A stretch of DNA of 64,000 nt from Escherichia coli (lineage in GTDB: Bacteria > Pseudomonadota > Gammaproteobacteria > Enterobacterales > Enterobacteriaceae), in assembly GCF_029227855.1 (NCBI RefSeq), contig NZ_CP074356.1; one strand, given 5' to 3'. Positions 40,637 to 49,933 of this stretch are shown in pieces. The notes under the pieces are model-generated. The model had not been told where the DNA came from. It saw only the letters and a program-made list of their open reading frames with translations, and did not search any database. The first letter of the stretch is position 1. Each line of letters begins with the position of its first letter. Made by a program: the position numbers and the translations under genes.

Positions 40637-42064
40637 ATGAGCGATAAAAAGAAGCGCAGTATGGCGGGTTTGCCGTGGATCGCGGCGATGGCCTTCTTCA
40701 TGCAGGCACTTGATGCCACTATTCTGAATACCGCCTTACCCGCAATCGCTCATAGCCTTAATCGTTCTCCTCTCGCGATGCAATCAGCCATCATCAGTTA
40801 TACGCTGACGGTGGCGATGCTTATTCCGGTAAGCGGATGGCTAGCCGATCGCTTCGGTACGCGTCGCATTTTTACCCTTGCCGTGAGTCTGTTCACATTG
40901 GGTTCTCTGGCCTGCGCACTTTCTAATTCGCTACCACAGCTGGTTGTCTTCCGGGTTATTCAGGGGATAGGCGGCGCAATGATGATGCCTGTTGCTCGGC
41001 TGGCCTTACTGCGCGCTTATCCTCGTAATGAACTTCTTCCAGTATTGAATTTTGTCGCCATGCCGGGTCTGGTGGGGCCAATTTTAGGCCCCGTTCTTGG
41101 CGGCGTGCTGGTCACCTGGGCAACCTGGCACTGGATATTTTTAATCAATATCCCCATAGGTATTGCGGGCCTTCTTTACGCGCGCAAACATATGCCCAAT
41201 TTCACCACCGCACGACGCAGATTCGATATCACTGGCTTTTTGCTGTTTGGCCTCAGCCTTGTTCTCTTCTCAAGCGGAATAGAGCTATTCGGGGAAAGGA
41301 TTGTCGCCAGCTGGATTGCCTTGACGGTAATTGTCACCAGCATCGGGTTACTGCTTCTCTATATTCTCCATGCGCGACACACGCCAAACCCATTAATTTC
41401 ATTAGATTTATTTAAAACCCGCACTTTCTCGATCGGTATCGTAGGCAATATTGCAACCCGTCTGGGGACCGGTTGTGTACCGTTCCTTATGCCATTGATG
41501 TTACAGGTAGGATTTGGTTATCAGGCGTTTATTGCCGGCTGTATGATGGCACCGACAGCGTTAGGTTCCATTATTGCAAAATCGATGGTTACCCAAGTCT
41601 TACGTCGTCTGGGCTATCGCCATACGTTAGTGGGGATCACGGTGATTATTGGGCTAATGATCGCTCAGTTCTCTTTGCAATCACCGGCAATGGCGATATG
41701 GATGCTGATCTTGCCGTTGTTTATATTAGGGATGGCTATGTCGACGCAATTTACCGCGATGAATACCATCACACTTGCCGATCTGACCGATGACAACGCC
41801 AGCAGCGGTAACAGTGTTCTGGCGGTCACGCAGCAACTGTCGATTAGTTTAGGCGTTGCTGTAAGTGCGGCCGTCCTTCGCGTTTATGAAGGGATGGAAG
41901 GCACAACGACTGTCGAACAATTCCACTATACGTTTATCACGATGGGCATTATTACTGTTGCTTCAGCAGCAATGTTCATGCTTCTGAAAACAACCGATGG
42001 TAATAATTTGATCAAAAGACAGCGTAAATCTAAGCCGAACCGCGTTCCATCAGAATCGGAGTAA
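40637..42064 (+). CDS. hsrA: MFS transporter (DHA2-like, 14-TM class)
   Basis: 475-aa polytopic [41 protein letters not shown]; identified as HsrA/YieO by position and sequence. Confidence 0.88.
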
Positions 42065-43022
42065 GTTGTAATCGTTGTTGCTGAAGGGTCGGCTGGGTTA
42101 TCCGATGGATGAGTACATCAATCGCCAGCTCCCCCAGTTCATCTTTCGGTTGGTGGATAGTGGTTAATGGTGGCGTCATAAAGCTTGCCAGTTCGATATC
42201 GTCATAGCCAATCACCGCGATATCCTGCGGAACCTGTAACTCTGCCTGATATAACGCCTGGTAAACGCCAACAGCCATAGCGTCATTTCCGGTAAAGACG
42301 GCCTGAGGACGCAGCGGATGTGATAACAGTTGGCGCATGGCGTCAAACCCGCCGTTAAATTCAAAATCACCAGTGACTTCATAGCCATCAGGAATGTTGA
42401 GACCCGCACGTTTCATCGCCGCCCGATAACCTTCCAACCGCAGGCGCGCCGGAGTTTTATCCAGCGGACCGGTAATACAGGCGATACGGGTATGACCTTT
42501 ATCGATCAGATATTGCGTTGCTAAGTCTCCGCCCAGCAACGAGTTATCCTGAATAAGATCGCTGTCGCCATCGAACGGAGCCCAGTCCATCATCACAGTA
42601 GGCACTGTCGGATAACGTTGCATGATTTCACGCGAAGGTTGATGCGTTTCGGTGCACAGTAACAGCAAGCCATCAACGCGTTTTTGCATCAGCGTTTCCA
42701 GATTGCGATTCATCCGCTGTTCATCGCCTTCGGTATTGCAAAGGACGAGACTATAACCGCGTTCGAAGCAGCTGCGTTCAACGCCACGCACCAGTTCTGA
42801 ATAGAAAGGATTGGTACTGGCAGTGATCAACATGCCAATGGTATGTGTTTGATTGAGTTTGAGGCTACGCGCCAGGGCTGATGGCGCGTAATTGAGTTCT
42901 TTAATCGCCGCTTCAACTTTGGCGGTAATCGCTTCACTGACGAAGCGATCTTTATTGATAACGTGAGAAACTGTTGAGGTAGAAACGCCCGCCAGGCGGG
43001 CAACATCTTTCATTGTAGCCAA
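42030..43022 (-). CDS. rbsR: Ribose operon repressor (LacI family)
   Basis: ORF (M)[42 protein letters not shown] (330 codons); first codon is TTG at 43020-43022, alternative ATG at 43011-43013; 3' end overlaps hsrA by 35 nt. Confidence 0.9.
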
Positions 43023-43025
43023 GCG

Positions 43026-43955
43026 TCACCTCTGCCTGTCTAAAAATGCGTCGATCTCTTCACGCCACGGTACGGAAGGTTGTGCGCCTTTACGTGTTAC
43101 GGCAATCGCAGCGGCAGCATGGGCAAACCGAATCGCCTCTGGCAATGGTTTTTCTTCCAGCAACGCCGTGATTAACGCGCCGTTAAAGGTATCTCCGGCA
43201 GCAATGGTATCGACAGCCTGCACCCGGAATCCAGGAACGCGCTGACCTTCACCATTCACGCTAGCCCATACACCACGACTTCCTAAAGTAATCAGTACAG
43301 TACGGATACCTTTTTCATGCAGTACCTGCGCCGCCTTCGCTGCATCTTCATCATTTTCAACACGAATACCGGTGAGCTTTTCTGCTTCCGTTTCGTTTGG
43401 CGTAATAATGTCCACCAGCGCCAGCAGTTCGTCAGGAAGTTCGCGAGCCGGAGCCGGGTTAAGCGCAACGATAGTCTTATTTTGATGGGCGATTTTCGCC
43501 GCTGCCATCACACTTTCGAGTGGTGATTCCAGCTGCATTAATAATGCTGACGCGTTGGCAATACGCTCACGTTGCGCTTCCACCAGCGCCGGGGAAAGGG
43601 CAGCATTAGCGCCGGCATGAATACCGATGACATTCTCACCTTCGCCATTAACAAAAATCAGCGCCACACCTGTTGATTCGCCTTTGATCACGCTGACCGG
43701 AGTAATATCAATGTTATCAGTGGCGAGCTGCTGGCGAACGCTCTCACCAATGCTGTCATCACCCGTACAGGCAATAAACGCGATATTCGCACCGCTACGC
43801 CCAGCAGCCACAGCCTGATTCGCGCCTTTGCCGCCAAATGCAACCTGATAGTGGTTACCGGTTACGGTTTCGCCTGGAGTAGGAAAAGATTGAAGATTAA
43901 GAATGTGGTCAGCATTAATGCTGCCAAGAACAACGAGGCTGCCTGCGTTTTGCAT
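43026..43955 (-). CDS. rbsK: Ribokinase
   Basis: Translation from ATG 43953-43955: MQNAGSLVVLGSINADHILNLQSFPTPGETVTGNHYQVAFGGKGANQAVAAG (309 aa). Confidence 0.95.
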   Translation of the reverse strand: MQNAGSLVVLGSINADHILNLQSFPTPGETVTGNHYQVAFGGKGANQAVAAGRSGANIAFIACTGDDSIGESVRQQLATDNIDITPVSVIKGESTGVALIFVNGEGENVIGIHAGANAALSPALVEAQRERIANASALLMQLESPLESVMAAAKIAHQNKTIVALNPAPARELPDELLALVDIITPNETEAEKLTGIRVENDEDAAKAAQVLHEKGIRTVLITLGSRGVWASVNGEGQRVPGFRVQAVDTIAAGDTFNGALITALLEEKPLPEAIRFAHAAAAIAVTRKGAQPSVPWREEIDAFLDRQR

Positions 43956-44080
43956 ATTCGGGATGTCCATAAAATGCGCCACCGTGTTAGGGTGGCGCGT
44001 GCCCTGCTTTTCTTTATATTACACGTTCATCTGTCGATGACGTATTTATGTCACCATCAGGTCATACAACCTGATTAAAA

Positions 44081-44971
44081 CTACTGCTTAACAACCAGTT
44101 TCAGATCAACCGGATACTTAGCCTGAACTTTCTCGCCTTTCAGCACTTTATCTGCGGTTTCGACGCCTTTCGCGCCAATCTGATCGGGTAGCTGAGCGAT
44201 AGTCGCTGCTAGTTTGCCATCATTCACCGCTTTTTCGCCATCCGGTGTACCGTCAAATCCGACGACCATCACATCCGATTTACCGGCAGTTTGCAGTGCG
44301 CGCAGCGCGCCCAGCGCCATTTCATCATTCTGCGCGAATACAGCCTGAACATCCGGATGAGCGGTCAACAGGTTCTGCATTACGTTCAAACCTTTAGTGC
44401 GATCAAAATCTGCTGGCTGGCTGGCAAGAACATTAAACTTGTGAGCAGCAACGGCCTGCTGGAAGCCTTCGCCACGTTCACGGGCTGCGGATGTACCAGC
44501 AATGCCTTGCAGCTCGATAACTTTGGCACCTTCACCCGCTTTCTTCGCGATGTAATCACCGGCGATTTTGCCACCCAGTACGTTATCAGAAGCAATGTGG
44601 CTCACCACTTCACCTTTCGTTGCCTGGCGGTCAAGAGTGATAACCGGGATGTTCGCCTGGTTAGCCATCTTCACAGCATTACCTACTGCGTCGGAGTCGG
44701 TCGGGTTAATCAGCAGAATTTTGGTGCCGCGAACGGTTAAGTCCTGCACGTTCGCCAGCTCTTTCGCCGGGTTGTTCTGGGAGTCCAGCACCACCAGGTT
44801 ATAGCCAAGCTTATCCGCCTCTTTCTGCGCGCCATCTTTCAGCGATACAAAGAACGGGTTGTTAAGCGTGGAGACCACCAGCGCGATGGTGTCTTTTGCC
44901 ATCGCATTCGCACTGACGGTGGCGCTTAGCGCAACAGCGGAAACCAGGGTAGCCAGTTTTTTCATGTTCAT
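44081..44971 (-). CDS. rbsB: Ribose ABC transporter periplasmic binding protein
   Basis: Translation from ATG 44969-44971: [41 protein letters not shown], with a signal peptide (296 aa). Confidence 0.95.
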
Positions 44972-44995
44972 ATTCAAGATGTCCTGTAGTCGTTA

Positions 44996-45961
44996 TTACT
45001 GCTTTTTGTTGTCTACCAGCACCGCCAGCAAAATCACCACCGCTTTGACGATCATCTGGTAATAGGAGGAAACACCTAACAAATTCAATCCATTATTAAG
45101 GAAGCCAAGAATTAATGCGCCGATCAACGTCCCAACAATGCGACCTTTTCCGCCCGCCAGACTCGTACCGCCCAGAACCACCGCAGCAATAGCATCCAGC
45201 TCATAGCCAGTCCCCGCCGTGGGTTGTGCGGAGGAGAGACGCGCCACTTCAATGATCCCGGCCAGCGATGCCAGCAGACCACAAAGAGAATAGACGATGA
45301 TTTTGATTTTATTGACGTTGATACCAGAAAGACGCGTTGCCGCTTCGTTGCCGCCCAGCGCGTAGATGTAACGCCCCAGACGCGTGTGATGCAGCATGTA
45401 CCAGGCCGCGAGGAAGACAATCCCCATGATCCAGACTGGCGTCGGTACGCCCAGCGGACGACCAATACCAAACCAGCCAAACAGATCGGCGTTCTCAGTA
45501 AAGCCGGTATTCACTGGGCTACCGTTGGTATAAACCATGGTCACGCCGCGCAGTAAAAGCATCATAACCAGCGTAGCGATAAACGCCTGAACGCGACCTT
45601 TCGCTACAATCACCCCGGTTACCGCACCAATTGCGGCACCTAACGCGAGAGCGGCAGCGACAGCCACCAGCGCATTGACTTCAATGCCGACGATAGATGC
45701 AGCAACTGCGCCGGTTAGCGCCAACAGAGAACCTACAGACAAGTCGATGCCCGACGTCAGGATCACCAGCGTCATCCCGACCGCCATAATGGCGTTCACC
45801 GAGGTTTGCTGGAGAATATTGAATAAGTTATTGATGGTGAAAAAGTTCGGGCTTAACGTCGAGACAATCGCGATCAGCACCAGCAGAGCGATAAGCGATT
45901 TCTGCTCCATCAGCCACGCTTTCGTGAAATAACGGCGACCAGAGACAGTCTGGGTTGTCAT
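44996..45961 (-). CDS. rbsC: Ribose ABC transporter permease
   Basis: 321-aa polytopic ORF MTTQTVSGRRYFTKAWLMEQKSLIALLVLIAIVSTL. Confidence 0.95.
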   Translation of the reverse strand: MTTQTVSGRRYFTKAWLMEQKSLIALLVLIAIVSTLSPNFFTINNLFNILQQTSVNAIMAVGMTLVILTSGIDLSVGSLLALTGAVAASIVGIEVNALVAVAAALALGAAIGAVTGVIVAKGRVQAFIATLVMMLLLRGVTMVYTNGSPVNTGFTENADLFGWFGIGRPLGVPTPVWIMGIVFLAAWYMLHHTRLGRYIYALGGNEAATRLSGINVNKIKIIVYSLCGLLASLAGIIEVARLSSAQPTAGTGYELDAIAAVVLGGTSLAGGKGRIVGTLIGALILGFLNNGLNLLGVSSYYQMIVKAVVILLAVLVDNKKQ

Positions 45962-45965
45962 TTTT

Positions 45966-47471
45966 TTACTCCTGATTCACGCGATTAAGCTTGCCCACAG
46001 CGGCAGCCATTAACACTTCCTGGGTGGCCTGCTCACGAGTAAATTCCCCGCTGAGATGCCCTTCATGCATGACGATGATGCGATCGCTCATGCCTAATAC
46101 TTCTGGCATCTCCGATGACACCAGAATGATGCTCAAGCCATCGGCTTTGAACTGGTTAATCAGTTGATAGATCTCTTTTTTCGCGCCGACATCTACGCCA
46201 CGGGTAGGTTCATCAAGGATCAACACTTTGGGGCGTGTCATCAGACCGCGGGCAATCGCCACTTTTTGCTGATTGCCACCGGAAAGCAGACCAATTGCCT
46301 GTTCCATCGACGGTGTTTTCACATTAAACAGACGAATGAAATCACTCACAGCCTGCTGTTCATCGGCATGCTTCAAACTGCCGCCAGCGCGGCTGAAGTA
46401 GCGCAGCGCTGTCAGCGACATGTTCTCTTTTACTGACATGCCCAACACTAAACCGTCACGTTTACGGTCTTCGGAGATATACACAATGCCGCTTGCCAGG
46501 CCATCCTGCGGTGAACGGGTAACGACTTCATGCCCATCCAGGGTGACGTAACCGCTGGTGCGCGGTAGTGCGCCGTAGAGCACTTTCATCAGTTCGGTAC
46601 GACCTGCGCCCATCAAACCAGAGACGCCAAGAATTTCGCCTTTGCGTAAAGTAAAAGAGACATCGTTAACGCCAGGTCCGCAGAGATTATCGACTTTCAG
46701 GCGGATATCTCCCGGCGCTTTGTCCAGGTGTGGATATTGATCTTCCAGCTTGCGGCCCACCATCATCTCAATCAGCGAATCTTCGGTCAGTGATGCCACT
46801 TCGCGCTCAGCAATAAATTGCCCGTCACGAAAAACGGTAACGTCATCGCAAATCTCGAAGATTTCTTTCATGCGGTGGGAGATATAGACAATACCGCGGC
46901 CTTGCGATTTCAGCTCGCGTATGACGCGGAACAGGGATTCGGTTTCGGTATCGGTCAGCGCATCGGTCGGTTCATCCATAATGATGACTTTCGACTCAAA
47001 GCTCAGCACTTTGGCGATTTCAACCATTTGCTGGTCACCGATGGAAAGATCGCCCACCAGCTTGTCGCTTTTAAAGCGCAGGTTAAGTTTAGCCAGCAAT
47101 TTATCCGCTTCGGCATACATGGTTTTCCAGTCAATTTTGCCAAAGCGATTAACAAACTCACGACCGAGGAAAATGTTTTCGGCAATGGTCAACTGCGGGA
47201 TCAGGTTCAGTTCCTGATGGATAATCCCAATCCCGGCTTCCTGGGAAGATTTCGGCCCGGTAAATGTCGTTTCTTTCCCCAGCCATAAAAGCGTGCCGGC
47301 ATCGCGAGCATAGATACCAGTAAGCACTTTCATCATGGTGGATTTACCCGCGCCGTTTTCGCCCACCAGCGCCATCACGCGGCCCGGATAGACATTTAAC
47401 GCTGCGCCCGAGAGGGCTTTTACGCCCGGGAAGGCTTTATCGATGCCTTTAAGCTGAAGTAATGCTTCCAT
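45966..47471 (-). CDS. rbsA: Ribose ABC transporter ATP-binding protein (duplicated ABC domains)
   Basis: 501-aa [53 protein letters not shown] with Walker A and a second ABC domain. Confidence 0.95.
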
Positions 47472-47478
47472 GACGGCC

Positions 47479-47898
47479 TCAGAACGTCACGCCAGCACAG
47501 AGAATGATATTCGCATACGGAGAACATTCTCCGCTGCGAATTACCGCCTGACTTTCTGCGGTTTGTTGTTTGAATTGTTCATGCGTGGTGTAACGAATTT
47601 CAATGGTATTTCCCTGGTGTTTTTGCAGCTGCTCAAGGTGAGTGAGCAACGTTTCGTGGAGTTGCGGATTATGTTGTTTGATCTCTTCCGCGATAATGGC
47701 AGCCTCGACCTGCATTTCATTTGTGACGACGCCCAGCACCTGCATAAAAGAAGGTACACCCTGGGTTAATGCCATATCGATACGCGTTGTACTTTTGGGG
47801 ATGGGTAAACCAGCATCACACACCACCAGCGTATCGGTATGTCCCAGACGGGAGATCACCGATGAAATATCAGAATTAAGAACGGTGCCTTTTTTCAT
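47479..47898 (-). CDS. rbsD: D-ribose pyranase
   Basis: Translation from ATG 47896-47898: [34 protein letters not shown] (139 aa); the ORF track starts 4 codons upstream. Confidence 0.92.
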
Positions 47899-47910
47899 TT
47901 TTTTCTCCAT

Positions 47911-47928
47911 CAGCGAAACGTTTCGCTG
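47911..47928. promoter_or_regulatory. rbs operator (RbsR binding site)
   Basis: Perfect 18-bp palindrome cagcgaaacgtttcgctg immediately upstream of rbsD; LacI-family operator architecture. Confidence 0.7.
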
Positions 47929-48064
47929 ACCCGCAGTTTAATCCTGACTGAGTTGGGAAAACCATCGTGACGTTACGGAAATGTGATCAACCTCGAAACG
48001 TTTTACATGGTGATTAACCATGAAAACAAAAACGCCCCCTTATGGAGAAAGGAGGCGTCTGGCG

Positions 48065-49933
48065 TTAGATTTCGACCTGAGTACCCAGTTCGATAACCCT
48101 GTTTGGCGGAATTTCAAATTGATCTGGTGCACGCAGCGCATTACGTTGCAGCAGCAAGTACAGCTTGCCGCGCAGACGCAAATACCACGGGCGTTTGCCG
48201 AGGATCAACGACTCATGCGACATAAAGAAGGAGGTTTCCATCATCCGGCAACTTAATCCTTCCAGACCGCAGCGGTGGAAAACTTCTTCCACGTTTGGCG
48301 TTTCTCGCCAACCATAACTTGCCACCACGCGCCAGAAAGTGGGCGACAGTTGTTCAATCTGTACCCGACGGACATTATGGACATATGGCGCGTCTTCGGT
48401 ACGCAGAGTTAACAGAATCACCCGCTCATGCAATACCTTGTTATGTTTAAGGTTATGCATCAGCGCAAAGGGAATGACGTTGATTGCACGCGACATATAC
48501 ACCGCGGTCCCGGGCACGCGAACAGGCGGTGATTTCTCCAGCGAAGCAATCATCGCTTCCAGAGAGTTACCATGTTCATGCATCCGCCGCAGCAAGCGGA
48601 AACGCTCGCTCTTCCAGGTGGTCATCACGATAAACATCACAGTACCGAGGCTCAATGGCAACCAGCCGCCGGAGAGCAGTTTATCGAGGTTAGCGGTGAA
48701 CAATGGAATATCGACACAAAGGAAAGCAATCAGGATCAGCGCAACAAAATACTTATTCCAGTGCCAGTTCTGACGTGCCACGGTAGTCGAGAGAATAGAC
48801 GTCAGCACCATGGTTCCGGTCACCGCAATCCCGTACGCCGCCGCCAGGTTGCTGGAGTGCTCAAAGCTGACAATCACAATCACGACCGCGACATAGAGCA
48901 TCCAGTTCACAAACGGAATATAGATTTGCCCTGACTCCATTTCGGAGGTGTGAATAATGCGCATCGGCGACAAATATCCCAGACGTACCGCCTGACGCGT
49001 CAATGAGAAGACGCCAGAGATAACCGCCTGCGAGGCAATTACCGTCGCCAGTGCGGCGATGATCAGCAGCGGGATCAGCGCCCAGTCCGGTGCCAACAGG
49101 AAGAACGGGTTCTTAATCGCTTCCGGGTTCTTTAACAACAGCGCTCCCTGACCGAAGTAATTAAGGGTCAAGGAAGGTAATACGACGGTGAACCACGCCA
49201 GGCGAATAGGGAACTTACCAAAGTGCCCCATATCAGCATACAGCGCCTCGACCCCCGTAATCGACAACACCACTGCCCCTAATGCAATAAAAGAAACCGT
49301 TTTGTATTCAAGGAAGAAATGCACCGCCCACATTGGATTCAGCGCATGCAGCACTTCCGGGTTAGCAATAATGCTACGTAACCCCAGTCCTGCCAGAATC
49401 AAAAACCAGGTCAGCATGATCGGCGCAAACAGCTTACCGACCATAGCCGTGCCATGTTTTTGAATCATAAATAATAAAGTGAGAACGATAATTGAGAGGG
49501 GAACTATCCAGGTATCCAGCTGCGGGGCGACGATTTCCAGACCTTCAATGGCTGACATCACCGAAATAGCGGGTGTTATGACGACTTCACCATAGAAAAA
49601 GCTGCCGCCGATTAGCCCCATAATCACCAGCATTGATGTGGTTCGCGCCGACGTATTACGCCCGGCAAGCGACATCAACGTCAGGATCCCCCCCTCACCG
49701 GCGTTATCTGCCCGCATCACGAAGGTGAGATATTTAATGGAAACCACAAAGATTAGCAGCCAGAAGATCAGCGATAAAAAGCCAAACACGGCATCGCGTT
49801 CAACGCCAAAACCAAACTGGCCGGACAAACATTCACGAAGTGTATATAACGGGCTGGTACCAATATCGCCGTAGACAACTCCAATCGCCGCGAGGGTAAT
49901 CGCGGGCAATGATTGCTTATTATCAGTGCTCAT
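48065..49933 (-). CDS. kup: Low-affinity K+ uptake transporter Kup (TrkD)
   Basis: 622-aa polytopic [45 protein letters not shown]. Confidence 0.95.

Follow-up and report, generated by a model that had tools for sequence, protein, structure and literature searches.

The Escherichia coli ribose repressor gene rbsR very probably starts at a conserved TTG codon three bases behind the rbsK stop

The window analysed here, a stretch of 64,000 nucleotides of Escherichia coli DNA, carries on its minus strand the gene for the LacI/GalR-family ribose repressor RbsR. We find that this gene very probably starts at a TTG codon (43020-43022), and that the ATG three codons further downstream (43011-43013) encodes an internal methionine of the protein. 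A preliminary description of this DNA had hedged between the two codons; the annotation, conservation across 81 species, the spacing of the Shine-Dalgarno site and the match to the helix-turn-helix (HTH) profile come down on the side of the TTG, and the ATG does not hold up as the main start. The coordinates that it gave for the rbsK stop, the TTG and the ATG were all found to be right by reading the minus strand alongside the list of open reading frames. The TTG start is already present in the reference annotation and is an ordinary, known feature of the gene.

In RefSeq, rbsB, rbsK (930 nt) and rbsR are consecutive genes on the minus strand, and rbsR (WP_000224470.1), with a length of 993 nt and a product of 330 aa, begins 3 nt past the end of rbsK, i.e. 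at the TTG. This annotation was taken from K-12 and from a strain identical to the window over a 701-bp query spanning the junction (42700-43400); of 5426 complete E. coli genomes, 5399 contain the query, with an identity of 100% in some chromosomes and 99.4% in K-12. The product of the rbsR coding sequence (42030-43022, minus strand, 330 codons plus stop) aligns from residue 1 to 330 with positions 1-330 of the 330 in NCBIfam profile NF007743, the curated RbsR equivalog, and its score of 697 bits, against a cut-off of 531, places it within that equivalog. Pfam recovers the LacI-type HTH domain PF00356 at residues 3-48 (profile positions 1-46 of 46) and the periplasmic-binding-protein-like sugar domain, as PF13377 and PF00532, at residues 59-329, a combination that marks the protein as a member of the LacI/GalR family. 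Within the rbs cluster the gene follows immediately on rbsK, which is likewise the place of RbsR. UniProt P0ACQ0 gives the protein as 330 aa with the initiator methionine removed, reportedly after N-terminal protein sequencing of RbsR by Mauzy and Hermodson in 1992. Crystal structures of RbsR (PDB 9ny7 and 9ny8) carry the same 330-residue sequence, in a recombinant and tagged protein that does not by itself show the native N-terminus.

On the minus strand the junction reads CAG AGG TGA CGC TTG GCT ACA ATG AAA GAT GTT. The coding sequence of rbsK (ribokinase; 43026-43955, 309 codons plus stop in RefSeq, with a match to Pfam PfkB at E = 2e-80) ends in the TGA at 43026-43028, as read from the window sequence, and is followed by a 3-nt intercistronic spacer, CGC (43023-43025), whose free sequence variation among species is the behaviour of non-coding DNA. 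Then come the TTG, the codons GCT ACA (43014-43019), which specify Ala-Thr, and the ATG as codon 4. The longest rbsR reading frame, 42030-43022, opens with the TTG and yields a 330-aa protein with the N-terminus MATMKD; since the rbsK stop lies in the rbsR frame, initiation in that frame can occur no earlier than the TTG. The preliminary description had placed the rbsR start 4 nt from the rbsK stop, which is correct for the TTG, as this codon begins with the fourth base after the stop, and not for the ATG, which lies 12 nt after it. From codon counts, an in-frame NTG within three codons 5' of an ATG would arise by chance in about one case in seven, and the presence of an NTG ahead of the ATG is meaningful only because it is conserved.

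The conservation was assessed on 80 loci obtained from one scan of species-representative genomes, which together with the window gave 81 sequences aligned on the start. The comparison loci are all from Enterobacteriaceae, ranging from Escherichia to Franconibacter, Mangrovibacter and Buttiauxella, with 82-99% protein identity; the protein search gave close relatives from this family only. The codon at the position of the TTG is TTG in 70 sequences, GTG in nine and ATG in two, and never CTG or a non-start codon, its second and third bases being invariant throughout. Codon 2 varies as GCT (41), GCC (31), GCG (6) and GCA (3), and codon 3 as ACA (32), ACC (31), ACG (15) and ACT (3). Thus, the first and second positions of both codons have zero entropy in all 81 sequences, while each of the four bases is found at the third positions (entropies of 1.48 and 1.69 bits, respectively), which is the same three-base pattern as in rbsR codons 5-16. 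Such variation, confined to the third base, indicates that codons 2 and 3 are translated, and this coding pattern in turn implies that the frame opens at the NTG, and not at the ATG, in all 81 species. In short, an NTG has been kept across the species compared, and the codons between it and the ATG evolve as coding sequence. The ATG at codon 4 is itself invariant in all 81. The spacer between stop and start is 3 nt long in 77 of the 81 species and occurs in 15 sequence variants. The rbsK stop is TAA in 63 sequences, TGA in 12 and TAG in six, and falls in the rbsR frame in 79; as most species have TAA and two have the stop out of frame, the shared frame probably just follows from the constant spacer length of 3 nt.

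The only Shine-Dalgarno site upstream of either candidate start is GAGGUGA (GAGGTGA in the DNA, 43026-43032), which lies over the last rbsK codon (AGG) and its TGA and forms seven contiguous pairs with the 3' end of 16S rRNA (-11.3 kcal/mol). From the end of its GAGG core it is 6 nt to the TTG and 15 nt to the ATG, and there is no purine-rich stretch between the two codons. The optimum for Shine-Dalgarno spacing is about 5-9 nt, with a steep loss past about 13 nt; the UUG of rbsR thus lies at the distance expected of a non-AUG start. The last two rbsK codons have G at the third position in 80 and 78 of the 81 species, respectively, and the last residue of RbsK alternates between Arg (AGG) and Gly (GGG) among them. 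A nearly fixed third-position G despite this amino acid switch points to selection that acts on the nucleotides of the GAGGTGA motif themselves.

Comparison at the protein level addresses the same residues from another direction. The first position of the Pfam LacI HTH profile falls on Thr3 of RbsR, and residue 5 of LacI and residue 4 of CcpA align with this same residue. The solved chains of PurR begin with ATIKDVA, aligned to RbsR residues 2-8, which implies that Ala2 and Thr3 are part of the RbsR protein. In this alignment Met4 is matched by an isoleucine of PurR, and its conservation can hence be explained by protein structure without recourse to a role as a start.

The evidence bears unequally on the two other ways in which the ATG might be used. 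It is highly improbable that the ATG is the sole start, in which case the product would be a 327-aa protein beginning MKD and TTG-GCT-ACA an untranslated spacer. AUG is the strongest start codon, one published account putting its intrinsic advantage over UUG at 8- to 12-fold, and both the invariance of the ATG and the 327-aa calls made by several automated pipelines at these very loci (e.g. P0026 as against P0012 in our protein set) would fit such a start. Against it, codons 2 and 3 vary at the third base alone, whereas the true spacer just upstream varies freely; the codon ahead of them is one that can initiate in every sequence; the Shine-Dalgarno core, at 15 nt from the ATG, lies beyond the productive range; and the protein would lack Thr3, with which the LacI HTH domain opens. 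Use of both codons, with most RbsR initiated at the UUG and the lesser part at the AUG, 9 nt further on, so that one form would be three residues shorter at its DNA-binding end, is also unlikely. The two codons fall within one ribosome footprint, the junction RNA is unstructured, and the intrinsic strength and the invariance of the AUG favor this possibility as well; yet the latter is accounted for by the structural alignment with PurR, no Shine-Dalgarno sequence stands at a usable distance from the ATG, and there is no evidence for a second RbsR product. The more elaborate proposal that 330- and 327-aa forms arise from the two starts and differ in operator affinity, with their ratio set by ribosomes arriving from rbsK, has a slim chance at best of being correct. 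Searchable supplements of the initiation-site and N-terminomics studies TRAINSPOTTER, INRI-seq and Salmonella riboproteogenomics do not contain rbsR, and our literature search returned nothing relevant on a TTG/UUG start of rbsR or on a promoter of its own or internal to the operon. As a separate observation, the rbsK stop in Escherichia is UGA followed by C, in the rbsR frame, and read-through would give a RbsK-RbsR fusion. The UGA-C context is a leaky one; a trace of such a fusion in Escherichia is still less likely than dual initiation.

With the TTG as the start, we would picture initiation as follows. The ribosome would pair with GAGGUGA across the end of rbsK, setting the UUG at the optimal distance, and the product would be a 330-residue repressor with the N-terminus fMet-Ala-Thr-Met-Lys-Asp. 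The first methionine is probably cleaved, given the general rule for methionine aminopeptidase and the alanine at residue 2, to leave Ala-Thr-Met-Lys, and the ATG would merely supply Met4 within the HTH DNA-binding domain. The weak UUG would be expected to hold the output of the repressor low relative to the upstream genes of the operon. Ribosomes that terminate on rbsK three bases upstream probably add to initiation by reinitiating, and independent binding of 30S subunits is equally possible.

The two candidate starts have left their mark on the databases. The protein database holds RbsR entries of 330 aa (MATMKD) and of 327 aa (MKD) that are otherwise identical and stem from contigs of equal length (the pairs P0012/P0026, P0027/P0042 and P0028/P0049 in our set), and a survey that covered 10,643 E. 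coli genomes counts rbsR among the regulators with non-ATG starts and also lists 'dual ATG and non-ATG' starts for it, based on Prodigal predictions. A true ATG/TTG polymorphism within E. coli was considered and rejected: of the 5398 E. coli records that match the 57-nt rbsK-rbsR junction, 5129 have it unchanged, and when ATG or GTG was substituted for the TTG in the query, none of the E. coli records searched matched exactly. The discrepancy between 330 and 327 aa is a difference between gene callers at the same loci, not strain variation, and the dual starts of the survey are likewise an ambiguity between two nearby codons and not variation in sequence. The practical use of this result lies in annotation quality, in that 327-aa RbsR entries can be flagged as truncated calls, in which a conserved residue of the DNA-binding domain is missing. 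Altered junctions were also encountered. A protein from a metagenome contig (P0002) is a 512-aa in-frame fusion that passes from RbsK (...VNGEGQR) to RbsR (LAGVSTS...) through a deletion across the junction. In at least one complete E. coli genome (NZ_AP027156.1) rbsK adjoins mdtD and only 29% of the query was matched, which suggests that rbsR has been deleted there.

The preliminary description had also seen rbsR as tightly packed behind rbsK and as part of one message with rbsDACBK. The short spacer bears out the former in 77 of 81 species, and the latter agrees with the literature, in which several papers name a single operon, rbsDACBKR. A 3-nt gap between stop and start, within what the literature gives as one operon, is as short as expected of translationally coupled pairs; such a layout would allow termination-reinitiation, and the translational coupling of rbsR to rbsK that had been surmised is plausible as judged from the sequence. 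We put the chances as roughly even that initiation on rbsR relies to a substantial extent on translation of rbsK; no direct test of rbsK-rbsR coupling was found in the literature. If the coupling is real, regulators of rbsK translation would indirectly set repressor levels, an example being the small RNA GcvB, which is reported to repress translation of rbsK.

A masking RNA structure over the rbsR start, which would permit coupling by 'unmasking', was sought and rejected: the fold of a 111-nt junction segment (-29.1 kcal/mol) is not significant against shuffled sequences (-30.3 +/- 3.4; z = 0.37), and in the centroid fold the Shine-Dalgarno site and the TTG are unpaired. With a strong Shine-Dalgarno site in a junction no more structured than its shuffles, independent initiation by 30S subunits would also work. 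It is thus a serious possibility, though one that we rate somewhat below an even chance, that rbsR starts at the TTG but is independent of rbsK translation, being served by free 30S subunits on the exposed Shine-Dalgarno site and possibly also by a weak promoter inside rbsK, with the tight spacing reflecting only the embedding of that site in the end of rbsK. Besides the pairing energy and the open fold, this possibility is favored by the consideration that a repressor encoded only within the operon that it represses would presumably gain from separate expression. On the other side stand the retention of the 3-nt gap in nearly all species, the single transcription unit of the literature and the fact that a short gap with a Shine-Dalgarno site is the typical setting of termination-reinitiation. 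Moreover, a scan that covers strong near-consensus sites only found no sigma-70 consensus site in 41900-44200, inclusive of rbsK, as against 2.7 expected from shuffles.

Several further features were noted around these genes. A terminator-like hairpin, GCGCCACC...GGTGGCGC followed by ATTTT (43998-43976, minus strand, with the T-run extending to about 43971), sits in the spacer between rbsB and rbsK, with its end 16 nt ahead of the rbsK ATG. After conversion of coordinates, in part by way of K-12 gene positions, it coincides with the 3' end published for RbsZ, a ProQ-dependent small RNA (K-12 coordinates 3,937,045-3,937,278). The hairpin lies upstream of rbsK, so that transcription arrives at rbsK and rbsR only if the polymerase reads through it. 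The longest rbsK reading frame starts inside this hairpin, at a GTG at 43982, and would encode 318 aa, as against the 309 aa from the ATG at 43955 in RefSeq. No match to an Rfam family was obtained in 41900-48500. Within rbsR, codons 8-12 contain GCCCGC-CTG-GCGGGC (42987-43001, minus strand), a potential 6-bp hairpin 19 nt past the TTG. Over 41 species, 96% of the cells can pair, and there are no compensatory changes; 80 of the 81 species share the third base of the Ala11 codon (GCG), and constraints on amino acids and codons may explain this candidate hairpin. At its other end, rbsR overlaps by 35 nt (42030-42064) with the 3' end of a convergent MFS transporter gene (40637-42064, plus strand; mdtD in RefSeq), and no terminator-like site for either gene was found within the overlap.

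Placed beside known systems, the gene in the window is the same as rbsR of E. coli K-12 (b3753), with the same protein accession, TTG start and length of 330 aa and no difference between them. The closest solved paralogue, PurR, has a mature N-terminus that matches RbsR residue for residue from Ala2; it differs in having isoleucine at the site of Met4, so that purR is without the rival in-frame ATG that rbsR possesses. The start of purR is ATG, and purR is not known to be the last gene of an operon under its control. As for the junction, the coupled pairs trpE-trpD and galT-galK resemble rbsK-rbsR in their very short distance between stop and start and in having the Shine-Dalgarno site inside the upstream coding sequence; at rbsK-rbsR there is no masking RNA structure, and dependence of rbsR on rbsK translation is putative. 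In its use of a weak non-ATG start for a low-abundance repressor, rbsR is comparable to lacI, which begins with GTG, and to rhaR, mlc and cra; lacI, however, has a promoter of its own, whereas rbsR stands at the end of the operon that it targets.
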